From positions 24,341-88,340 of the forward strand of contig JBAZIZ010000004.1 in the NCBI GenBank assembly GCA_041651535.1: a stretch of DNA of 64,000 nt, in the 5' to 3' direction. The stretch comes from Patescibacteria group bacterium (lineage in GTDB: Bacteria; Patescibacteriota; Patescibacteriia; Magasanikbacterales; UBA922). Every line of letters starts with the position of its first letter. Position 1 is the first letter of the stretch. Both the position numbers and the translations under genes were made by a program. Shown here piece after piece: positions 2,815 through 64,000 of the stretch. The notes under the pieces are model-generated. The model was not told the origin of the DNA. It saw only the letters and a program-made list of their open reading frames with translations, and did no database searches.

Positions 2815-3360
2815 TTATTCACCTTTAGATGCTGTTTTTCCGGCTTTTTTTCTAATTATTTCATCAAGATATTTTATTCCTTTTCCTTTGTATGGTTCTG
2901 GTTTTCTCAATGCTCTGATTTCAGCAGCTGTAATTCCTAACAATTCTTTGTCAGCTGAAAAAAGAGTAATTTGATTTTTTTCTACTTTTACTTCAACAAC
3001 TTCAGGTATTTTAAAAATTACTGGATGAGAAAAACCTAATTCTAATTTTAAATCTTTACCTTGCATCGCAACTTTATAACCAACTCCATTTATTTCTAAA
3101 ACTTTTGTAAAACCTTTTGTAACACCATCTATCATATTTTGTATATGACTAGCATATGTTCCCCAAAGAGATCTTTCTTTTTTATCTTCTTCATTTTTTA
3201 CAGAAACTGATAAAAAATTATCATTTTTATTTATAGTAATTAGATCATTTATTTTTCTTTCCAATTTACCTTTAGAACCTTGGACGAAAATTGTTTTGTC
3301 TTTTATTTCAACATTTACGCCTTGTGGTATTTCTATTGTCTTTTTTCCTATTCTGGACAT
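2815..3360 (-). CDS. rplF: 50S ribosomal protein L6
   Basis: 181 aa, MSRIGKKTIEIPQGV N-terminus typical of L6. Confidence 0.9.
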   Translation of the reverse strand: MSRIGKKTIEIPQGVNVEIKDKTIFVQGSKGKLERKINDLITINKNDNFLSVSVKNEEDKKERSLWGTYASHIQNMIDGVTKGFTKVLEINGVGYKVAMQGKDLKLELGFSHPVIFKIPEVVEVKVEKNQITLFSADKELLGITAAEIRALRKPEPYKGKGIKYLDEIIRKKAGKTASKGE

Positions 3361-3376
3361 AATAAAAAAATTAAAA

Positions 3377-3769
3377 TTAATAACAAGAGCAGATTATTTC
3401 GCCGCCAAGACCTTGTTTTTTTGCTTCTTTAGCTGACATAATTCCTTTCGAAGTTGAAACAACAGCTAATCCATAACCATTCAAAATATTAGGCATTTCT
3501 GTAGATTTTTTATAAACTCTGTGTCCAGGTTTACTCTCTCTAACCAAAGAAGTTATTGCCGGTTGTTTATTTTCCGCATATTTTAATTCAATACGAATCA
3601 TAGCAGGATTCTCTTCCGTTTTTTCTACTTTGTTTAAATAAGATTCTTTTAAAAGAATATTTGCTAGAGCAAATTTAAGCTTTGAAAAAGGTATTTCAAC
3701 ATTTTGCTTTTTTGACATCTGAGCATTTCTTATTCTTGTAAGCATGTCTGCTATTGGGTCAGTCATCAT
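3377..3769 (-). CDS. rpsH: 30S ribosomal protein S8
   Basis: 130 aa, DPIADMLTRIRNA motif. Confidence 0.9.
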   Translation of the reverse strand: MMTDPIADMLTRIRNAQMSKKQNVEIPFSKLKFALANILLKESYLNKVEKTEENPAMIRIELKYAENKQPAITSLVRESKPGHRVYKKSTEMPNILNGYGLAVVSTSKGIMSAKEAKKQGLGGEIICSCY

Positions 3770-8560: not shown

Positions 8561-8953
8561 TTATACTCCTTCATGGATATGAATAGATTTGCCTTTTGGC
8601 AAAGAAACGATAGCTTTTTTATAATCACTTTTTTTACCAGAAGTTACTCCAAATCTTTTCTTTTTACCTTCAACATTTATCATTGAAACTGATTTTGCTT
8701 GAATACCAAAAAGATTTTTAATTGCTTTTTTTACATCTTCTTTGGTAGCTTTTCTGTTTACAACAAAAACATATTTATTTTGCATTTCTAATCTAGTGGC
8801 TTTTTCACTAATAACTGTTTTTTGCAAAACTCTATAAGCCAAACCTGTTTTATTATTTTTTTTAACTTCTTTCTTTTCTTCATTTTTTACAGGTTTTTCA
8901 GCCTTTTTTATTTCTTTAGTTTTTGTTTTTGATAATTTATTTATAATACCCAT
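8561..8953 (-). CDS. rplW: 50S ribosomal protein L23 with K-rich N-terminal extension
   Basis: 130 aa; L23 core (YVFVVNRKATKEDVKKAIKNLFG) preceded by ~35 aa of Lys-rich sequence. Confidence 0.85.
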   Translation of the reverse strand: MGIINKLSKTKTKEIKKAEKPVKNEEKKEVKKNNKTGLAYRVLQKTVISEKATRLEMQNKYVFVVNRKATKEDVKKAIKNLFGIQAKSVSMINVEGKKKRFGVTSGKKSDYKKAIVSLPKGKSIHIHEGV

Positions 8954-8959
8954 ATAATT

Positions 8960-9592
8960 TTATTTTTTCGCTAAACGATTCTCTAAAATTTTAAATGAAT
9001 CTAAAGACATGATTAAATTTTTATTTGATAGAAGATTCAAAACATTCAAATCTTGAGCTCTGATAATATTTAAATCCTTTAAATTTCTTACAGCCAAAAC
9101 TGTTTTTGCATCATTTTCATTTGCTACAAACAAACTTTTTTTCAAAGAAATGTTAATTTTTTTAAATACATCTTCCATTTCTTTTGTTTTTGGTTCAGCA
9201 CCAAATTGTTCAAAAATAAATAATTTATCAGCTTTAATTTTATTATCAAGACACATTGCAAAAGCTTTTCTATTCATTTTTTTATTTATTTTTTGTTTGT
9301 AATTTCTTAAATTTGTTGGACCAAAAGTAATACCTCCACCAACCCAAATTGGTGATCTGTTTGAACCATGACGGGCTCTTCCAGTTCCTTTTTGTTTCCA
9401 AGGTTTTTTTCCACCTCCACTAACTTCTCCTCTGTCTTTTGTATAAGCCCAAGGTTGTCTAGCATTAGCACGCAAAGCTTCAAAAACTTGATGGATAAGA
9501 CTTTTTTTAATTTCAACATCAAAAACTTCTTTGTTTAAATCCAAATCTTTTACTTTGTCGCCTTTTAAATTATAAACTGCTATTTTTGTCAT
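8960..9592 (-). CDS. rplD: 50S ribosomal protein L4
   Basis: 210 aa, QKGTGRARHGS motif. Confidence 0.9.
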   Translation of the reverse strand: MTKIAVYNLKGDKVKDLDLNKEVFDVEIKKSLIHQVFEALRANARQPWAYTKDRGEVSGGGKKPWKQKGTGRARHGSNRSPIWVGGGITFGPTNLRNYKQKINKKMNRKAFAMCLDNKIKADKLFIFEQFGAEPKTKEMEDVFKKINISLKKSLFVANENDAKTVLAVRNLKDLNIIRAQDLNVLNLLSNKNLIMSLDSFKILENRLAKK

Positions 9593-15117: not shown

Positions 15118-15215
15118 GTGATTTTTTATACACAACTTGGGGATAACTCTGGCAATTCAAAATTAAAAATTCAAAAGTCAAAAAATGATGAATAAAAATG
15201 GTCTTTTTTAACTTA

Positions 15216-20059: not shown

Positions 20060-20434
20060 TCATTTCTGAACCCCGATATAACCTTTTTCTTCTAGCCAGC
20101 GAACTGGCCAGTAAAAATCCATTGCAACGATATCAAAAGTGTTGCAATAGATATCTGTCCAACCAGTCAAACTGGCTGAAACAGAGAAAATTTGTACTCC
20201 TTTTTCTCTGTTATTTTTTATTGTTTTTTCTGTTTCTTCAAAAAGATTTTTAAAATAGTCTCCACATTGGATTTTTCCCGAAATTCTCTCACAATTTCGA
20301 GTCCAATCTTTTCCAACAAAATCCTCTGCAAGGACTTTATTTTTTTCATAAACAAGAGAAGATCCATTCCAAAAACCAATTGACACATAAAAGTAAACAA
20401 GAACGAAAAAAAATACAGCAAGAAACTTTCTCAT
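20060..20434 (-). CDS. Hypothetical small secreted/membrane-anchored protein
   Basis: ORF 20060..20467; likely start MRKFLAVFFFVLVYF (signal peptide or TM), then a Cys-containing soluble domain. A minus-strand TTGACA-N17-TATAGT promoter at 20505-20535 supports it being real. Confidence 0.5.
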   Translation of the reverse strand: MRKFLAVFFFVLVYFYVSIGFWNGSSLVYEKNKVLAEDFVGKDWTRNCERISGKIQCGDYFKNLFEETEKTIKNNREKGVQIFSVSASLTGWTDIYCNTFDIVAMDFYWPVRWLEEKGYIGVQK

Positions 20435-20568
20435 TTCACTCTCCAATAAAAAATTATAAAAAAACAATTTATTTCAAAAGAACAACGCAAAACTATACAA
20501 CAAAATTCTTATTTTGTCAATAGTATTTACTCTTTTTTAGCTAAATTAAGCTATTTTTTATAAAAAAA

Positions 20569-47545: not shown

Positions 47546-47788
47546 AAATAAATTTGATTAAAATATTTATTAATTTGATAATTTTATAGATTCTTTTTTT
47601 AAGTACAATTATTTAAAAACAAAAAAATTCCTTGTTTTTAAGGATTAAAAAAGAAATGATTAGTTGTTGAAAGATTTTGATCTCATGTAATATCCGGATA
47701 ATAGGCTTTTGCCTTGCTCTAAAACCAGAATTTTTCGCTTAATAAAGCGAAAATTTGCATCTAAAACGAGTATTTTTCTAGTGAATTT

Positions 47789-47831
47789 ATAATACACTAA
47801 TAAAAAGTTCTTGTCAAATAAGAACAAGTGG
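47789..47831 (-). promoter_or_regulatory. rpoBC promoter (TTGACA-N17-TATTAT) with upstream TTATCCACTTGTT motif
   Basis: Minus-strand reading agttATCCACTTGTTcttatTTGACAagaactttttattagtgTATTAT; about 245-nt leader to rpoB. Confidence 0.5.
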
Positions 47832-47994
47832 ATAACTTTTTGTCAATTTTTTTATTTTTTCGCTAATTATAGATAAAAAAATAAAAATAATTTTTAAAAA
47901 AATAATTTTATTCACAATTTTATCCACAGCTTGGCTAATTTTAGGCAAAAAAAATAATTTGACAAAAAAAATTAAATATACAAATACCTGATAT

Positions 47995-49827
47995 TTAATT
48001 TTTAAAATCCATAATTTCTTCAAATTCTTTTTGTTCAACTGTTTCTTTTTCTATAAGATGTTTAACTAGATTATCCATTTGACTGCGTTTTTCTTTAATT
48101 AATTTTTCAGCTCTATTTTCAGCATTTTTAAGCAAACTATTTATTTCTCCGTCTATTATTTCAGCTGTTTTTTCTGAATAATTTGTTTTTTCATGAATTT
48201 CTTGTGCTAAAAAAATCAATTCTTCATTTTCAGAATATTGTCTTGGTCCAAGTTTATCGCTCATACCATATTTCAAAACCATTGTTTTGGCAATTTGAGT
48301 AGCTTTTTTTAAATCACTTGAAGGACCAGTACTAAGATTTTCTTTACCATAAATCATTTTTTCAGTTACATAACCACCTAAAATCATAGCTAAATCATCT
48401 TCAAATTGTGCATAAGTTTTGTATAACACATCTTTTTCTGGTGTGCTCAAAGTATAACCACCAGCTAGACCACGACCAATAATAGATACTTTACGAATTG
48501 GATGGCAATTTGGTAAAAAATGCCCAACAATTGCATGGCCAGCTTCATGATAAGCAGTCATTTCTTTTTCTTTTTCAGTCATTATTTTTGATTTTTTTTC
48601 TGGACCTAAAATAACTTTTTCAATTGCTTCAAAAACATCATTTTCTTCTATAATTTTTTTATTTTTTCTAACAGCTAAAATTGCAGCTTCATTTAATAAA
48701 TTTTCCAATTCTGCTCCAGAAAATCCTGGAGTTCTTTCAGCAATTTTTCTAATAGAAATTTTCTTTTCTAAAGGTTTATTTTTTGCGTGTACTTCTAAAA
48801 TTTCTAATCTGTCTTCTAAATCTGGCATATCAATAACTATACGACGATCAAATCTGCCAGGTCTTAATAAAGCTGGATCCAAAACATCAGGACGATTTGT
48901 TGCCGCAACGACAATTACTCCTAAATTTGGTTCAAAACCATCCATTTCAACCAAAATTTGATTCAAAGTTTGTTCTCTTTCATCATGACTTCCCCCAAGT
49001 CCAGATCCTCTTTTTCGGCCAACAGCATCTATTTCATCAATAAAAACTATGGCTGGAGTTGATTTTTTTGCATTATCAAATAAATCTCTGACACGACTTG
49101 CACCAACTCCAACAAACATTTCTACAAACTCTGAACCAGAAATATGAAAAAAAGGCACTCCAGCTTCACCAGCAACTGCTTTAGCTAAAAGTGTTTTTCC
49201 TGTTCCAGGAGCACCCATAAGTAAAACTCCTTTAGGAATTTTTGCACCCATATTAGAAAATTTCTTTGGATCTTTCAAAAAATCAACTATTTCTAACAAT
49301 TCTTCTTTTGCCTCTTTTGCTCCAGCAACATCTTTGAAAGTTTTTTTATTTTTATCGTCTGGTTTAGAAATTTTAGCGTTAGTCTTTCCAAAACCCATCG
49401 CTTTATTATTTGCTCCTTGGACTTGTCGAGAAAAAAAATAAATTAAAAAAATAAAAAGTAATAATGGCATTATCCAAGGCACAATCAAAGAAAGCCAGAA
49501 AGAAAAACCAGATTCTTCTTTGACACTGATATTTATTTTGTCAATTTTGTTTTTATCTAAATTATAACTAGCAATCAATTCATAAAAAGATTGATTTGCT
49601 AATAGTTTTATTTTTAAATCTGCACTGTCTGTGCCTTTTAGATCCAAGACAACATAATTATTATGAAGAGAGATATTTTCAACATTTTCATTATTGATTT
49701 CACTGATCATTTTTGTTATATCAGCTTCTTCTGTTTTATTTTTTGATAATTCAAAAGAACTTACTAATGTGGCAATTATTAGTAAAGCCAAAAAAATAAA
49801 CAGAAAATTTTTAAACAAATTTTTCAT
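47995..49827 (-). CDS. ftsH: ATP-dependent zinc metalloprotease FtsH
   Basis: N-terminal TM, AAA+ module (GAPGTGKT), HEAGHA zinc site. Confidence 0.95.
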
Positions 49828-50198
49828 AAATTTATGATTATTTTAGTTATTTATTAGTTGAATTATAGAAAAAAAAAACCGCAAAGTCAAATAACTTATA
49901 ATTTAAGAATTAAGGGCTGAGAATTAAGATTTATGATTCTTGATTTATGATTTAAGTAAAACATTTTATAAGTCCTAAGTCGAAAGTCAAATGTCAAAAG
50001 TCATATTCTAAAAAATTTTTAAATAAAAAAACCTTACTTTTGAAAAACGAAGCTTTTATTTTTTTAATTCTAAAATTTAAAATCCTAAATCTACAATTAT
50101 TTGTTTTCCACTCTCTCTACTTGTTTACTAACTTTTTTAACTAAATTAAAAAAGGAATAAATAATATGCTGGGCAAGATATTGACAAAATAGAAAAAA

Positions 50199-50227
50199 AT
50201 GCTAATATAAAAATAATTTTTTTATCA
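50199..50227 (+). promoter_or_regulatory. Promoter (TTGACA-N16-TAATAT) for the zinc-ribbon gene
   Basis: TTGACAaaatagaaaaaaatgcTAATAT, followed by a strong AAGGAG Shine-Dalgarno at 50231-50236. Confidence 0.4.
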
Positions 50228-50243
50228 ATTAAGGAGAGAAAAA

Positions 50244-50624
50244 ATGAATGATCAACGTTTGTGTGAATGCCCCGAGTGTGGGAGGGTATGGTTTTCAAGG
50301 AGTCTTTACCCATATTGCCAACAATGTGGTGTAAGAGCAGAAAAGAAAAAAATAGGTATGTCTCATGCAGAAGCATGCGAATGGAATGAAAAAAGGAGAA
50401 TAGAGGAGGAAAAAAAGAAACTAGAAAGTATGCGCAAACTCCAGCTCGAAAACAAAGAGTTATCACAAAAATATTTATCGGATAGAGAAGAACTATTCGA
50501 AAAATATTTTTCTCTTATACAAACGCCAGCGGATTTTTTTCAGGAAGCTATGAATTTATCTGAGCGTGACATAAACAAGTTACGACAGATAGTTGCAGAA
50601 TGGGATAAAATTAACAAAAAATAA
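50244..50624 (+). CDS. Hypothetical zinc-ribbon protein (126 aa) with coiled-coil C-terminus; compositionally atypical
   Basis: CECPECG...CQQCG zinc ribbon; strong SD (AAGGAG) where native genes lack one; visibly higher GC and AAG/CGT/AGG codons. Confidence 0.6.
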   Translation: MNDQRLCECPECGRVWFSRSLYPYCQQCGVRAEKKKIGMSHAEACEWNEKRRIEEEKKKLESMRKLQLENKELSQKYLSDREELFEKYFSLIQTPADFFQEAMNLSERDINKLRQIVAEWDKINKK

Positions 50625-50656
50625 CCAAGAAACTTGTATTGGTTATGATCGTTTTA

Positions 50657-50682
50657 TGGGGACTCTCGAAGTCCCTTTTTTA
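50657..50682 (+). terminator. Rho-independent terminator
   Basis: GGGACT-ctcga-AGTCCC hairpin followed by TTTTTT. Confidence 0.7.
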
Positions 50683-50790
50683 ATTCAAAAATTTTTTTGT
50701 TCACCAATTTTTTTATTTTTTTAATTTTGAATTTTTAATCTTATTATGTTATAATACCAAAATCTTAAATTACGATACTTATTTTTTTAT

Positions 50791-53355
50791 ATGTCTAAAC
50801 GTGGACGTCCAATCAAAAAACAAAACTATTCTTCATCTTCTTTGAATCCTCATCTTTCTACTGGAATAATTGCTGTGCTTCTCATAATTTTTGCAGCAAT
50901 TATTTTTTTAAGTTTTTATGAAAAAGCTGGAGTTATTGGAAAAATTATTAATGAATATATTCTAAGTTTTTTGTTTGGTAATATAAAATACACAGTACCT
51001 TTTGTAATTATTGCTCTTGCTGGTTATATGATAAAAGGTAAAGATGAAGAAACCGAATCAACACAAGGAATCGGTGCTTTACTATTTTTTATTTCACTGG
51101 CTGGGATTATGCATTTAAAATTTCCTACATCTGAAATGTGGACAAAATCTTTAGATGGACAAGGTGGTGGTTTATTTGGAATGTCAGCTTGGCTTGCTAA
51201 AACTTATTTAGGCGATATAGCTGCTTATGTTTTATTTTTTGGTTTAGTTTTGATTTCGTTTTTTTTAATTTTTACACCTTCAGTAAAACTATTTATTTCT
51301 TTTTATAAATACTTAACAAATTTCGTAAAATCCACAATTATTTTTTTCTTAAATATCCTTAAAAAACTTTTTATACCAACAATCAGAGATACACAAAATT
51401 TACCTGATGAAATTGATGAAGATGAAGATGATGAATCAGATGATGAGGAAATTGAAAAACATAATTTTAAACATTTAGAAAAAACTGAACAAAATGAAAA
51501 TGACGATGAGGATGAAGAAAAAAAGATTTTAGAAAAAAGAAAAATGATAGAAAAAGAAAATGAAGAAAAAGAAATAAATTCTAATGTAAAAAAAGAAGAA
51601 GATGAAGAAGACGATAGCATTTGGTCAAAAAGAGTAATTATCAAAAAATTACCTCCTTTAGATTTATTAGTTCAGAAAAAAAGTAAACCAACTAGTGGTG
51701 ACATAAAAGCAAATTCTTTAATTATCAGAAATACTTTGCATGAATTTAATATTGATGTTGAAATGGGAGAAATTCAAGTTGGTCCAACAGTAACTCAATT
51801 TACTTTGAAACCACCAAAAGGAGTAAAATTAACCAAAATTACTAGTCTTTCAAATGATTTAGCTTTAGCTCTTGCTGCCCATCCTATCAGAATCGAAGCA
51901 CCTATTCCAGGAAAATCTTTAGTTGGCATAGAAGTTCCAAATCAAAAAACTGCCATGGTTACTTTCAAAGAATTACTTGAATCTAATGAGTTTAGAAAAA
52001 GACCAAATGATGTGATGATTGCTTTGGGAAAAGATGTCGCTGGAAAAACTTGGTTTGCTGATTTACCAAAAATGCCTCACTTACTTATTGCTGGAACTAC
52101 AGGAAGTGGAAAAACAGTTTGTGTAAATACGATTATCATGAGTTTACTTTATGAAAATACAGCCGAAAGTTTAAGATTTATTATGGTTGATCCAAAAAGA
52201 GTTGAACTTACAATGTATAATGGTATTCCTCATTTACTTACTCCTGTAATTACAAATACGCAAAAAACTGTTAATGCTTTGAAATGGACTATTGGCGAAA
52301 TGGAAAGAAGATTTGAATTATTTTCCAAAGTAGGATCACGCAATATTGATTCTTATAATGAAAAATATCCAAATAAAAAAATACCTCACATTGTATTTAT
52401 TATTGACGAACTTGCCGATCTTATGGCTACAGCAGCAAGTGATGTTGAAGCTGGAATTATTCGTTTAGCCCAAATGGCTCGAGCTGTTGGTATTCATTTA
52501 GTTGTAGCTACTCAAAGACCTAGTGTAGATGTTATCACTGGACTTATGAAAGCAAATATACCAGCGAGAATAGCTTTTTCTGTTGCTTCATCAATAGATT
52601 CTAGAACTATTTTAGATTCTCCTGGAGCAGAAAAATTGATTGGAAAAGGAGACATGCTTTTTCAAACTGCAGAACTTGGTAAACCAGTCAGAATACAAGG
52701 TGCTTTTATATCTGAAACTGAATTAAAAAATGTTGTTAGTTATTTAAAAGGAGATGAGGAACCAGAATATGATGAAAGTATTGTGGAAGGAAATAGTAAA
52801 ACTGGAACAGCTAGTATGTTTGGTGGAGCAAATGATAGTCAAGATCCTTTATTTCTTGAAGCTAAACAAGCAATTATTGAAGCAGGAAAAGCCAGTGCTT
52901 CTCTACTTCAACGTCGTCTAAAAGTTGGTTATGCACGAGCCGCTAGAATTTTAGATGAAATGGAAGAAGCAGGAATTATTGGTCCAGCACAAGGAGCAAA
53001 ACCACGTGATATTTTAATAACCGAAGAAGATGCTGCTCAAGATTTTTATTTAAAAAAATTACAAAAAACTAATGATGCTGGTGCAGAAGCAAATTTCTTT
53101 GACAATGATTTTTCAAAAGAAGAAGAAAAAGAAGATGAGGAATTTGAAGATGAATTAGAAAATACAGAAGACGCAGAAAATGAAATGACAAAAATAGAAG
53201 AAGATTTAAATGAAGAAGAAACAGAAGAATCTTTTGATGAAATTATAGAAAATGATACTGAAAAAAATGACGATGAAGAAATTGCTGAAAATGAAGATGA
53301 AGAATTTGATGATGAAGACAAAAAAGAAGAAAAACCTAAAAACATTTTTTTCTAA
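50791..53355 (+). CDS. ftsK: DNA translocase FtsK/SpoIIIE with ~110-aa acidic C-terminal tail
   Basis: N-terminal TM segments, acidic linker, motor domain with Walker A (AGTTGSGKT), gamma-like winged helix (LLQRRLKVGYARAARILDEMEEAGI), then a Glu/Asp-rich tail. Confidence 0.92.
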   Translation: MSKRGRPIKKQNYSSSSLNPHLSTGIIAVLLIIFAAIIFLSFYEKAGVIGKIINEYILSFLFGNIKYTVPFVIIALAGYMIKGKDEETESTQGIGALLFFISLAGIMHLKFPTSEMWTKSLDGQGGGLFGMSAWLAKTYLGDIAAYVLFFGLVLISFFLIFTPSVKLFISFYKYLTNFVKSTIIFFLNILKKLFIPTIRDTQNLPDEIDEDEDDESDDEEIEKHNFKHLEKTEQNENDDEDEEKKILEKRKMIEKENEEKEINSNVKKEEDEEDDSIWSKRVIIKKLPPLDLLVQKKSKPTSGDIKANSLIIRNTLHEFNIDVEMGEIQVGPTVTQFTLKPPKGVKLTKITSLSNDLALALAAHPIRIEAPIPGKSLVGIEVPNQKTAMVTFKELLESNEFRKRPNDVMIALGKDVAGKTWFADLPKMPHLLIAGTTGSGKTVCVNTIIMSLLYENTAESLRFIMVDPKRVELTMYNGIPHLLTPVITNTQKTVNALKWTIGEMERRFELFSKVGSRNIDSYNEKYPNKKIPHIVFIIDELADLMATAASDVEAGIIRLAQMARAVGIHLVVATQRPSVDVITGLMKANIPARIAFSVASSIDSRTILDSPGAEKLIGKGDMLFQTAELGKPVRIQGAFISETELKNVVSYLKGDEEPEYDESIVEGNSKTGTASMFGGANDSQDPLFLEAKQAIIEAGKASASLLQRRLKVGYARAARILDEMEEAGIIGPAQGAKPRDILITEEDAAQDFYLKKLQKTNDAGAEANFFDNDFSKEEEKEDEEFEDELENTEDAENEMTKIEEDLNEEETEESFDEIIENDTEKNDDEEIAENEDEEFDDEDKKEEKPKNIFF

Positions 53356-54021: not shown

Positions 54022-54050
54022 AAAACCCGCTTTACAGCGGATTTTTTTAT
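54022..54050. terminator. Bidirectional rho-independent terminator (RodZ-like gene on +, rplS on -)
   Basis: CCGCT-ttac-AGCGG hairpin flanked by A-run and T-run. Confidence 0.65.
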
Positions 54051-54403
54051 TTTGTTTCTTCAGTTTTTTTAACTGGTTTAATTTCTTTTAATTTCTTTTT
54101 GTAAGTTCTGATATAATAAGGTCTTGATTGTCTAACTTTCATTTGACGAACAAGTTCTATTTTATCAACAACTGGTGAATTTATTGGATAAATTTTTTCT
54201 ACACCATAACCATCAGCATTTTTTCTAACAGTAACGGTTGCTCCAACTTCAGTCCCGTGTTTGATAGCAATTATTATTCCTTCAAAAATCTGTATACGTT
54301 CTTTTTCTTCACCTTTTTTATTTAATTCTTTAATTTTTTGGTGAACACGAACTTCCATACCTGGCTTTAGTTCTTGACGTATATCTTTAATTTCTTTTGA
54401 CAT
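54047..54403 (-). CDS. rplS: 50S ribosomal protein L19
   Basis: 118 aa, conserved L19 sequence. Confidence 0.9.
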   Translation of the reverse strand: MSKEIKDIRQELKPGMEVRVHQKIKELNKKGEEKERIQIFEGIIIAIKHGTEVGATVTVRKNADGYGVEKIYPINSPVVDKIELVRQMKVRQSRPYYIRTYKKKLKEIKPVKKTEETK

Positions 54404-54514
54404 ATTTATTTTTTTAGGGAGAGGTTAATCTATGCAAAACTAACGTCACTTTTTATTTTTAAACTTGAAAATATACTACTATAATTTATATTTTTTGTCA
54501 AGTATTTTGCTTAA

Positions 54515-55570
54515 TTATTCTTCAATTTGTTCAATTTTCCCTGGTTTGCCATTTTCTTCTTCTGGGGCTTCGCCTCTTTTTATAACTTCCCAAATTCCTT
54601 TATTTATTTCTAACATTAATTTAGGATTTTCTTTTAAAAATACTTTGGCTTTTTCACGTCCAACACCTAATTTTATATCATTATATGAATAACTACTACC
54701 TGATTTGCTGACAATTTTGTAAAAAACTCCAGTATCTAATAAATCACCAGCAATAGAAATTCCTTCATTATACATAATATCAAATTCTGTAGTTTTGAAT
54801 GGAGCGGCTACTTTATTTTTGACAACTTTAGCTTTTACACGATTTCCAATTATTTTATCGCCTTGTTTTATTTGGGCTGAGCGACGAACTTCAATTCTAA
54901 CTGATGAATAAAATTTTAAAGCATTTCCACCAGTTGTAGTTTCAGGATTTCCAAAAAATACTCCGATTTTTTGTCTGGTTTGATTGATAAAAACAACAAT
55001 AGTATTTGTCTTACTAACTATACCAGTAAGTTTTCTCAAAGCTTGACTCATAAGTCTAGCTTGAAGTCCCATGTGTGAATCCCCCATTTCACCTTCAATT
55101 TCAGCTTTTGGAACCAAAGCAGCCACTGAATCAACAACTACAACTTCAACAGCATTTGATCTGACTAAAGTTTCCAAAATTTCCAAAGCTTGTTCGCCTG
55201 TATCTGGTTGGGAAATAAATAAATTATTTACATCAACACCAATCTTTCTAGCATAATCTGGATCTAAAGCATGTTCAGCATCGATAAAAGCAGCAACTCC
55301 GCCTTTTTTTTGCACTTCAGCTACGATATGTTGGGCTAAAGTTGTCTTTCCACTAGATTCTGGTCCAAAAATTTCAATTATTCTACCTCTTGGAACTCCG
55401 CCTACTCCTAAAGCAATATCCAATGAAATTGAACCAGTAGTCACTGAATCAACACTAGTTGAATGAGCTTCACCAAAACGCATTATAGAACTATTGCCAT
55501 ATTTTTCTTTTATTTGTTCAATAGCTAAAGCAGCCGCTTCCATTTTTGGATTTTCCGTTTTTTTTGCCAT
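54515..55570 (-). CDS. recA: Recombinase RecA
   Basis: 351 aa, Walker A (GPESSGKTT), conserved RecA core. Confidence 0.97.
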
Positions 55571-60658: not shown

Positions 60659-60704
60659 TAATGATAGTGATTTTTTTGCTTAATTTAGATAAAAAAAGTG
60701 GGTT

Positions 60705-61130
60705 TTAACCCACAATATTTGTCAATTTTTTATGTCTTTTTTTCTTTCTTTTTAAAGAAAGAAAATTAAAATCATCATCAGAACTGGTAGAGTCAGAATC
60801 GTTTTTAAAGTCCTTTAAGCCTTTTTTTGTGATTCTTTTTTTCCTCAGCTTTTCCCAAGCTAAGCACAGATTTTGCTTAGCTTTTTCTTTTTTTGCTAAG
60901 AGTAAAATTTCTTTCTCTTTTTTTTGTTTAAAAAGAGAAATTATTTTATTCACATTAATTTGAATGCACTGTTTATTTTTCTTTTCTTCAAACAGATTAT
61001 CCAAAAAAAATTTTATGGTTTTTTCGCCTTGGTTTAGATATATATCTATCCAAGGTTCTTTTATTTCAAAAACTTTTATAGTTTTTAAAACAAACCTGAG
61101 AAATTCTTCTGTATAAAAACCCTTTCTCAT
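60705..61130 (-). CDS. Hypothetical basic protein (141 aa)
   Basis: Long ORF in AT-rich DNA; Lys-rich; weak similarity to the adjacent ORF; terminator hairpin GTGGGTT-tt-AACCCAC overlaps its stop. Confidence 0.45.
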   Translation of the reverse strand: MRKGFYTEEFLRFVLKTIKVFEIKEPWIDIYLNQGEKTIKFFLDNLFEEKKNKQCIQINVNKIISLFKQKKEKEILLLAKKEKAKQNLCLAWEKLRKKRITKKGLKDFKNDSDSTSSDDDFNFLSLKRKKKRHKKLTNIVG

Positions 61131-61154
61131 TGTATCCTCCTTTTTTTTCTGTAA

Positions 61155-61535
61155 TCAAATATTTTTCCAGCTGGAAATTTCTTCCAGTTTTTTATTTACC
61201 TCTTCTCCTTTGCTTTCTCCTAAGAGAAAAGAAGAAAGTCCTTTTTTGTTCAACTCTTTTTTCAAAGAGTTAACTGAAAGAACTTTAAAAAGAGAAAAAA
61301 TAAAACCTTTTTTTTCAGGAGAAATTTTTATAAAAATCTCCTGAAACCCCGACACACTTTGAAGTGTGTCAAGAACTTTTACAGTAACACAAAAGTTCAA
61401 AAGAATTGTTTTATCTTCTTTCTGAGGAAGATACAAAAAAATCTTTTTTTTAAATTTTCCTCTCATTTTTGATTCTCCTTTATTTAAAGTGCTATTAAGT
61501 AGATTAGTCTTTTTTAATTTTTCTGTCAATAACAA
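61155..61535 (-). CDS. Hypothetical basic protein (126 aa; possibly starts at MRGKF)
   Basis: Long ORF; weak N-terminal similarity to the 60705..61130 product. Confidence 0.4.
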   Translation of the reverse strand: MLLTEKLKKTNLLNSTLNKGESKMRGKFKKKIFLYLPQKEDKTILLNFCVTVKVLDTLQSVSGFQEIFIKISPEKKGFIFSLFKVLSVNSLKKELNKKGLSSFLLGESKGEEVNKKLEEISSWKNI

Positions 61536-63273: not shown

Positions 63274-63305
63274 CTTGACAAAAACCTCAAAAAATGATTA
63301 TATTT
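63274..63305 (+). promoter_or_regulatory. Promoter (TTGACA-N18-TATATT) for the 63345 cassette gene
   Basis: ccTTGACAaaaacctcaaaaaatgatTATATT; strong SD AAAGGAG at 63331-63337. Confidence 0.4.
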
Positions 63306-63344
63306 AGTTAGCTCGTTATCAATTTATTAAAAGGAGAATTACAA

Positions 63345-63668
63345 ATGAGAGTATTCGTTTGGTTTCCAGAAGAAGAACAGAAAATAAAAATACCTGGAAA
63401 AAATGGAAAAGCTCTTTATCTCGAAATTAACTCTGAGGCTAAAGACTTACTTATAGGCACTCTTATAGTGTTTTACACTAGAAGAGGAAATAAAGGAAGT
63501 AAGATAGTCTTTAAAATTAAAGATGAGCCAACTTATGATTCAGGCACAAGCCGACTTTTTTTTAGAGTTGTGCTTGATGAAAATGAAGCCACGACGAAAC
63601 AAATTGAGTTTTTTTTCAGAAAATGGAAATATACTCCCAGAGAGTTCGACCAGAGAGTTCGACGCTAA
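63345..63668 (+). CDS. Hypothetical protein (107 aa) in a self-contained promoter-SD-ORF-terminator cassette
   Basis: Strong SD unusual for this genome; beta-rich predicted sequence; no family recognised. Confidence 0.5.
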   Translation: MRVFVWFPEEEQKIKIPGKNGKALYLEINSEAKDLLIGTLIVFYTRRGNKGSKIVFKIKDEPTYDSGTSRLFFRVVLDENEATTKQIEFFFRKWKYTPREFDQRVRR

Positions 63669-63702
63669 AAAGAAATAAGTCTCTCAATTTTCTTTGCCTT
63701 TC

Positions 63703-63729
63703 CGCCTGGATTCGTCCAGGTCTTTTTTT
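63703..63729 (+). terminator. Rho-independent terminator
   Basis: CCTGGA-ttcg-TCCAGG hairpin followed by TCTTTTTTT. Confidence 0.65.
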
Positions 63730-63804
63730 ATATTTAAAAAAACAACCATATTTCAGATTGCTTTTCAGCAAAAAACTTTTGACTTTTTACTTTCAACTTT
63801 TGAC

Positions 63805-64000
63805 TTATAGCAGTGGTTTCCCTGTCATTTCATTTGGAATCTCTAAACCAGCGTGTTTCAAAATCGTTGGTGCAATATCAGCTAAAATTCCTACAGGAGT
63901 CAAAAGAGAAATATCTATTTTTTTTATATCCAAAATATTTTGTCCAACAAAACGATTACCAATAACTAAAAATGGTACTGGATGATTATTATGTTCTTTA
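63805..64000 (-). CDS. gpmI: 2,3-bisphosphoglycerate-independent phosphoglycerate mutase (partial, C-terminal end only)
   Basis: Minus-strand translation ...HNNHPVPFLVIGNRFVGQNILDIKKIDISLLTPVGILADIAPTILKHAGLEIPNEMTGKPLL* matches the conserved iPGM C-terminus; runs off the window edge. Confidence 0.7.
   Translation of the reverse strand, partial: KEHNNHPVPFLVIGNRFVGQNILDIKKIDISLLTPVGILADIAPTILKHAGLEIPNEMTGKPLL

Follow-up and report, generated by a model that had tools for sequence, protein, structure and literature searches.

[quoted passage not shown] Parcubacteria are frequently without any anti-SD (PMC9297842), and the organism studied here has kept it. A uridine at position -1 of the start codon pairs with A37 of the initiator tRNA, favouring initiation (PMC10018350). 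The organism analysed in this work, an uncultured CPR bacterium of the Magasanikbacteria, resembles the Bacteroidia in its SD-less core, its retained anti-SD and its handful of SD-led genes, one of which encodes a 126-aa orphan protein and lies between ftsH and ftsK in the 64-kb stretch of DNA that was analysed (hereafter the window; GC 28.9%).

The ftsH-ftsK spacer and its single-gene unit

The genes ftsH (47995..49827, minus strand), with the AAA and Peptidase_M41 domains of Pfam, and ftsK (50791..53355, plus strand), with the FtsK 4TM, alpha, SpoIIIE and gamma domains of Pfam, are divergent and leave between them a spacer of 963 nt, in agreement with the approximately 960 nt given in the preliminary description of this DNA. 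The closest FtsK proteins come from Candidatus Magasanikbacteria MAGs and are at most 63% identical in the genome scan, the nearest one in the metagenome scan being 59% identical. The spacer carries one complete single-gene unit, composed of a promoter, an SD, the ORF of the 126-aa protein (WC414_02900 in the NCBI annotation of a 147.9-kb contig) and a terminator. The near-consensus promoter proposed earlier could be placed at TTGACA-16-TGcTAATAT (50181..50208, plus strand), in which 10 of the 12 consensus positions match and the -10 box is extended by an upstream TG. It is followed by a leader predicted to be unstructured and by the SD AAGGAG (50231..50236, plus strand), located 7 nt 5' of the ATG, with an A at position -1. 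The coding sequence (50244..50624, plus strand), which encodes an N-terminal zinc ribbon and helices, begins at this ATG, and an in-frame TAA at 50214 blocks any start farther upstream. The strong terminator that had been claimed is seen at 50658..50682 (plus strand) as GGGGACU-CUCGA-AGUCCCU followed by U6, a 7-bp stem with four GC pairs and a 5-nt loop, whose centroid hairpin has an energy of -9.9 kcal/mol. A lone gene flanked in this way by a promoter and a terminator of its own corresponds to the autonomous unit of a prophage moron.

The ftsH promoter TTGACT-17-TATAAT (49862..49890, minus strand; 11 of 12 consensus matches) is a host element outside the cassette, and the ftsK promoter TTGAAT-17-TG-TATAAT (50727..50755, plus strand) is a host element as well; judged from its own transcription signals, the cassette is insulated from both genes. 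The same arrangement was recovered in a second assembly, the Logan assembly of run SRR8542065. The antisense ORF of 106 aa (50146..50466) is regarded as spurious, as had been supposed, given its GTG start, the lack of an SD, its overlap with the promoter and its richness in F, L and S. A search of the spacer with Rfam covariance models gave no match even at E values up to 1, and a non-coding RNA in the spacer was dropped on this ground. A replication origin inside the spacer was likewise discarded, the cluster of DnaA boxes being placed outside it, at 47.8-47.93 kb. Across the window the GC skew tracks gene orientation.

Inspection of the 126-aa protein showed the two CxxCG knuckles of the N-terminal zinc ribbon described earlier, C9-P-E-C12-G and C25-Q-Q-C28-G. 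In the AF2 model, computed from the single sequence without alignment (mean pLDDT 84.9, pTM 0.37), short beta strands at residues 5-8 and 15-18 frame the knuckles, and the ribbon is followed by a long, charged helix (residues 41-91) and by two further helices (95-103 and 107-124). A fold composed of a zinc ribbon and helices is thus predicted with moderate confidence. The protein has neither a hydrophobic segment nor a signal-peptide-like start. From the model one may tentatively picture a zinc-ribbon docking factor that oligomerises via its helices, a role which is possible rather than probable.

The homology searches returned no homologue beyond the protein itself, which was the sole match both among 5.8 billion clustered proteins (word-indexed search) and among 1.84 billion representatives (exhaustive HMMER). 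It was unmatched in IMG/VR, and in INPHARED and PLSDB at E<=1; nothing scored above threshold in Pfam, PHROGs, NCBIfam, PADLOC (in which no defence-system family was matched) or the PDB sequences, and fold searches with the model gave generic matches only. The FmdB-type zinc ribbon (TIGR02605) scored 10.3 bits, the curated cutoff being 31.3. A weak match to the Lar-like restriction-alleviation PHROG 599 (E=0.006, 17.7 bits) extends over the ribbon and into the helix, with no support from BFVD. Relative to DksA/TraR and YabA, in which a coiled coil precedes a C-terminal C4 zinc finger, the domain order is reversed in the AF2 model, and no match to these proteins was obtained in Pfam or NCBIfam. 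A zinc ribbon joined to a long helix without a known family represents a previously unseen combination.

Codon usage and start signals of the host and of the cassette

The GC content of the 126-aa ORF is 0.357, compared with 0.289 for the window and a native maximum of 0.355; overall GC was therefore rejected as evidence of foreignness, the value lying within 0.002 of the GC-richest native genes. The third codon positions give a different picture. The GC3 of 0.307 is the highest among the 63 ORFs (mean 0.149, native approximately 0.14), and against a null of 20,000 random 125-codon windows drawn from native genes it corresponds to z=+5.1, with 0 of the 20,000 length-matched windows as extreme. 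The synonymous-codon log likelihood is the lowest of the 63 ORFs (z=-5.7; again 0 of 20,000 windows as extreme). The outlier position of the gene in GC3 and codon usage is due to G/C-ending codons that are nearly absent from host genes: AAG encodes 3 of the 15 Lys residues (native share 4%) and AGG 3 of the 10 Arg residues (native share 0.9%), and GAG (native 4%), CAG (6%) and TGC (9%) are also over-used. By GC3 and codon likelihood the ORF falls within the compositional definition of a horizontally acquired gene. The preliminary description of a GC-richer coding sequence rich in AAG, CGT and AGG holds for GC3, AAG and AGG, but overall GC is only at the upper native edge and CGT is an ordinary native codon (31%); similarly, its foreign "island" is reduced to the atypical coding sequence, as the non-coding flanks are AT-rich like host intergenic DNA. 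Elsewhere in the window, the ORF at 20060..20467 (minus strand; 135 aa, TTG start) has a GC3 of 0.243, a poor codon fit, no SD and no Pfam match, and is possibly a further acquired gene, if not a spurious ORF.

The 16S rRNA of the organism ends in GGAUCACCUCCUUUCU, with an intact CCUCC anti-SD. The predicted duplex between this tail and the AAGGAG of the 126-aa gene has an energy of -8.2 kcal/mol, compared with a native median of +0.4, and bears out the earlier contrast between a perfect SD and SD-less native genes. Duplex energies of -6 kcal/mol or lower are found in just 3-4 of the 63 ORFs, each of them codon-atypical. Native starts follow another pattern: among the 50 ATG-started native genes, 48 have U at position -1 and none has A, and G accounts for 0-8% at each position from -15 to -1. 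In relatives with a GC content of 35 to 55%, the same base stands at -1 of 115 out of 123 starts anchored by homology (ftsK, recA, rpoB and the rodZ-like gene), and these genes of the relatives are likewise without an SD. The U(-1), a nearly G-free leader of 15 nt and the missing SD together constitute a clade-wide start signature irrespective of genome GC. Since the core genes of relatives are also devoid of SDs, the SD signal is foreign to the whole clade. The 126-aa gene violates both native rules, with AAGGAG at ideal spacing and A at -1.

When AAGGAG-type motifs placed 4-10 nt 5' of a start codon were sought on either strand, with intragenic sites set aside, exactly four ORFs of the window were obtained: 50244..50624, 61466..61155, 61130..60705 and 63345..63668. 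The second and third of these form a second unit (60698..61529, minus strand; GC3 0.23, A at -1) of two SD-led orphan ORFs. The first of the pair, 61466..61155, starts with ATG behind the SD AAAGGAGAA, so that the start of 61155..61535, annotated as TTG, belongs at the ATG at 61466; the other, 61130..60705, is led by the SD AAAGGAGGA. The unit ends at its own terminator (60713->60698). The third unit (63275..63727, plus strand) has a promoter TTGACA-18-TATATT, the SD AAAGGAGAA and its own terminator (63704-63721), and contains the 107-aa ORF 63345..63668 (plus strand; GC3 0.27, A at -1). The adjacent ORF 63623..63985 (plus strand) overlaps this terminator and the 3' end of the minus-strand iPGM gene, and is probably spurious. 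A fourth unit, with three adjacent small SD-led ORFs, is located at 8611..9410 (minus strand) of L162, the 10-kb stretch that adjoins the window on its right.

The class therefore amounts to seven ORFs in four units over approximately 74 kb (window and L162), all of 70-141 aa, with A at -1 and a GC3 of 0.23-0.33. A GC3 of at least 0.22 is found in all seven, compared with 1 of 67 other genes (Fisher P=4e-9), and U(-1) in none of them, compared with 48 of 50 native starts (P=1.4e-7). None of the seven matches any Pfam or significant PHROG family. Two of the other members were searched for homologues: one has none, and the second has a single match (61%) on a contig of 583 bp. SD, -1 base and GC3 represent three independent signals of foreignness which separate the genes almost perfectly, and a screen combining them offers a simple way of listing accessory genes in Magasanikbacteria and perhaps in other SD-poor CPR genomes.

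Repeats and synteny around the cassette

Two of the flanking tandem repeats of the preliminary description correspond to heptamer arrays. The WTCATAA array (49924..49957, minus strand; TTATGAT on the plus strand, TRF period 7, 4.4 copies at 49924-49954), previously noted as GATTTATGATT x2, is found with at least four units only here and in the ftsH-ftsK spacer of L021, within 1.69 Mb of fetched loci. It is the sole element common to both spacers and is therefore ancestral, not an island border. The AAGTCAA array (49970..50003, plus strand; period 7, 3.9 copies at 49977-50003), previously AAGTC x4, has similar arrays in L048, L071 and L111 and at 63780..63806 (minus strand) and 15154..15180 of the window, and is therefore a generic intergenic repeat. 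These phased (A)AAGTCA arrays are intergenic in several CPR genomes, and their opposite strand reads as a tandem series of TTGACT -35-like boxes. In the window, two of the arrays adjoin SD-led cassettes, and AAGTCnnAAGTC gives 10 matches compared with 4.4 expected. The repeats exist as claimed, but they do not serve as evidence of mobility, being placed upstream of the ftsH promoter and not at the borders of the unit. An att-like role was rejected for both arrays, as the first is an ancestral part of the spacer and the second a generic repeat.

A candidate for a border was found in a 19-nt direct repeat, TTTTTTAATTCTAAAATTT, whose left copy (50060..50078, plus strand) is identical at 18 of 19 positions to the right copy (50676..50694, plus strand), the latter overlapping the T-tract of the terminator; a weaker, degenerate third copy is placed at 50717..50735 (plus strand). 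This pair brackets the unit, as the att-like repeats sought in the preliminary description should do and the short repeats cited there do not. It is the sole such pair in the spacer, one arises in approximately 0.7% of the spacer sequences simulated under a Markov-1 model, and no further copy with at most one mismatch is present in the 64 kb. The remaining members of the class have no flanking direct repeats. The 19-nt repeat is suggestive as the only candidate border of the unit, but may not be a target duplication, in view of its A/T-richness, the overlap with the terminator tail and the degenerate third copy. As terminal inverted repeats only A/T-rich arms with 72% complementarity were seen. 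The window contains no tRNA and the spacer no recombinase ORF, and with a 19-nt repeat of only moderate significance the unit does not have the composition of a genomic island; nor does it have that of an integron cassette, since it carries its own promoter and its sole downstream hairpin is a plain terminator. The vicinity of the cassette contains no integrase, transposase, tRNA or phage gene, and the donor was not found.

In approximately 40 relatives rpoC-rpoB (minus strand) faces ftsK, the rodZ-like gene and recA (plus strand). The ancestral arrangement is rpoB<->ftsK, and this genome and L021 are the only ones in which ftsH separates the two genes. A tblastn search with the 126-aa gene gave no match in 160 ftsK loci of Magasanikbacteria and Patescibacteria, L021 included. 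Absence at the syntenic site, by which acquisition is defined phyletically, is what was observed, the nearest relative having an FtsK only 63% identical; on a definition based on an identified donor, the searches return only the 126-aa gene itself.

L021 (2516..3532), from a marine biofilm Patescibacteria MAG, contains the other divergent ftsH-ftsK spacer, of approximately 1 kb. It contains a near-consensus promoter, a unit that consists of a 77-aa ORF or a small RNA and ends in a strong terminator, and then a hairpin approximately 160 nt long (3219-3386). This content is unrelated to the cassette of the window. The ftsH-ftsK slot seems to tolerate insertions. On the other side of ftsK, recA is co-directional with it in every relative holding the gene (L002-L081) and is on the opposite strand in the window (54047..55570 region), where rplS is inserted before recA and the GC skew is negative; this arrangement suggests that the DNA on the right-hand side of the rodZ-like gene has been locally inverted or rearranged.

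A non-coding element of approximately 350 nt (47546..47994 of the window) was found in the gap that separates rpoB from the ftsH 3' end, conserved in at least 14 Magasanikbacteria (relatives L002-L073) and the window (nhmmer E=3.7e-6) and without a match in Rfam. On the rpoB strand it displays a -10 and two TTGACA boxes that are invariant. The transcript read from this strand, approximately 150 nt long, contains a helix UUCUGG..CCGGA around a variable hairpin, a conserved AUCCCAUGCCUCGAUUCCAU and an intrinsic terminator with compensatory changes, placed 70-100 nt 5' of the rpoB ATG. Three to five DnaA-box 9-mers adjoin the element, among which TTATCCACA is invariant, with a perfect copy at 47920. 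The element could be an rpoBC leader or attenuator, or a small RNA, together with a DnaA-regulated promoter or oriC.

Origin of the cassette and comparison with known systems

The 126-aa gene is probably a horizontally acquired, self-sufficient orphan cassette. It looks imported because its SD, its A(-1) and its G/C-ending codons differ from the host regime, and the horizontal reading follows from the extreme codon usage together with the absence of homologues and of the gene itself from the 160 related ftsK loci. Of the horizontal and possibly phage-derived origin put forward in the preliminary description, the first part is upheld by codons, absence, SD and A(-1), and the second finds no phage match and no mobility gene nearby. 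The findings named there as contrary evidence did not appear either: the codon statistics are far outside the range of the genome, and all the related loci and databases that were searched lack the gene. In the proposed scenario the spacer would have arisen by rearrangement in this lineage, with the cassette sitting within it. The extended -10 sigma-70 promoter would start a short unstructured leader, the AAGGAG would pair with the retained 16S CCUCC and set the ribosome on the ATG, and the hairpin and U-tract would end transcription 50 nt 5' of the ftsK promoter. The gene would have been acquired horizontally from a donor that uses SDs and has a higher third-position GC than the host (a phage, a plasmid or another bacterium being candidates), with amelioration yet to occur. 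With low confidence, the product may be a small cytoplasmic protein whose ribbon docks on nucleic acid or on a host protein and whose helices self-associate, and, again with low confidence, an accessory factor originating in a mobile element or a phage-host conflict, not a core cell-division factor.

A native origin deserves the closest consideration among the alternatives, even if it is judged unlikely. The gene would then be a lineage-specific, fast-evolving member of a host class that depends on the SD and forms a translational channel of its own. Its codons would be the product of selection, for instance of rare codons that make translation slow or conditional, and not a legacy of a donor, and the retention of the anti-SD would be explained. 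The recurrence of such genes (seven ORFs in four units), a 16S rRNA retaining a CCUCC that core genes do not use, the absence of mobility genes and the precedent of Bacteroidia, where rare SD-led genes such as rpsU are native regulatory targets (PMC9976891), all speak for it. However, the AT pressure at third positions should make weakly constrained native genes more AT-rich, the class ORFs searched have no homologue or just one, none of the members is a ribosomal or translation gene, and A(-1) breaks a rule held in 93-96% of native and relatives' starts. The idea that the ORF is spurious or decaying, and the spacer simply non-coding promoter DNA for ftsH and ftsK, is very improbable: homologues are lacking, a 126-codon ORF is expected by chance about once per 64-kb AT-rich window by our own estimate, and antisense ORFs of 100-300 aa do exist in the window, but here the SD is ideal and placed at 7 nt, the promoter has TG and matches at 10/12 positions, and a canonical terminator comes directly after the stop, in addition to a two-knuckle CPxCG/CxxCG motif, a confident single-sequence AF2 model, a GC1 > GC2 ~ GC3 periodicity and an in-frame TAA at 50214 that bars upstream extension.

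A dedicated regulator or partner of ftsH/ftsK or of replication, placed for co-regulation, is suggested by the position between both genes, 2.3 kb from the conserved DnaA-box cluster, and by an architecture of zinc and helix which loosely resembles that of YabA and DksA. This possibility is remote: the gene is absent from 160 of 160 related ftsK loci, including that of L021 with its shared ftsH-ftsK pair, the domain order is opposite to that of YabA/DksA with no Pfam or NCBIfam match, and the cassette is not co-transcribed with ftsH or ftsK because it has its own promoter and terminator. The source being a metagenome-assembled genome, foreign reads could also have been joined into the contig. 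Such a chimera is hardly credible, since the Logan assembly of SRR8542065 gives the identical arrangement, both flanks are host-like with host promoters and three more units of the same kind lie among native genes.

By itself, the probable recent acquisition of one orphan gene is nothing out of the ordinary. The question raised is whether an anti-SD retained in an SD-independent system is used solely by imported genes. A broader proposal, that two initiation regimes coexist, the native code of U(-1) and a G-free A/U leader without SD, and an SD-dependent channel for small, codon-atypical orphan genes, is speculative and on balance doubtful. If true, the otherwise unused anti-SD would be maintained for, or exploited by, accessory genes, and core genes would be naturally partitioned in translation from acquired or conflict genes, in a manner analogous to, yet distinct from, the bS21/rpsU system of Bacteroidia.

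Like prophage morons and ORFans, the cassette consists of one small gene inserted amid unrelated genes, which is transcribed independently from a promoter to a terminator of its own, is atypical in composition and has no homologues. Unlike morons, its neighbours are ftsH and ftsK, with no prophage, phage or mobility gene beside it. ORFans are usually AT-richer than their hosts, whereas this gene is GC-richer than its host at third positions, and it differs from both groups in being further marked by an initiation signal that host genes do not use. It resembles genomic islands and integron cassettes in its foreign composition and in the short direct repeat found at either end; however, the unit measures 0.6 kb compared with more than 10 kb for islands and has neither a tRNA target nor an integrase, and in contrast to integron cassettes it has no attC and carries its own promoter. 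The N-terminal two-knuckle CPxCG...CxxCG ribbon of approximately 30 residues is similar to those of FmdB (CxxC_CxxC_SSSS), the Lar-like PHROG 599 and DUF7479, and it is on this ribbon that the weak profile and fold matches are located, but the scores remain below the thresholds of these small zinc-ribbon families (E 0.006-0.57) and the helical tail of 90 residues is unmatched. With respect to Bacteroidia, the SD-led genes found here are small orphan ORFs with foreign codons and not rpsU or rpsR, their SDs are ordinary (-6 to -12 kcal/mol, not below -13) and the host signal includes a near-invariant U at position -1.
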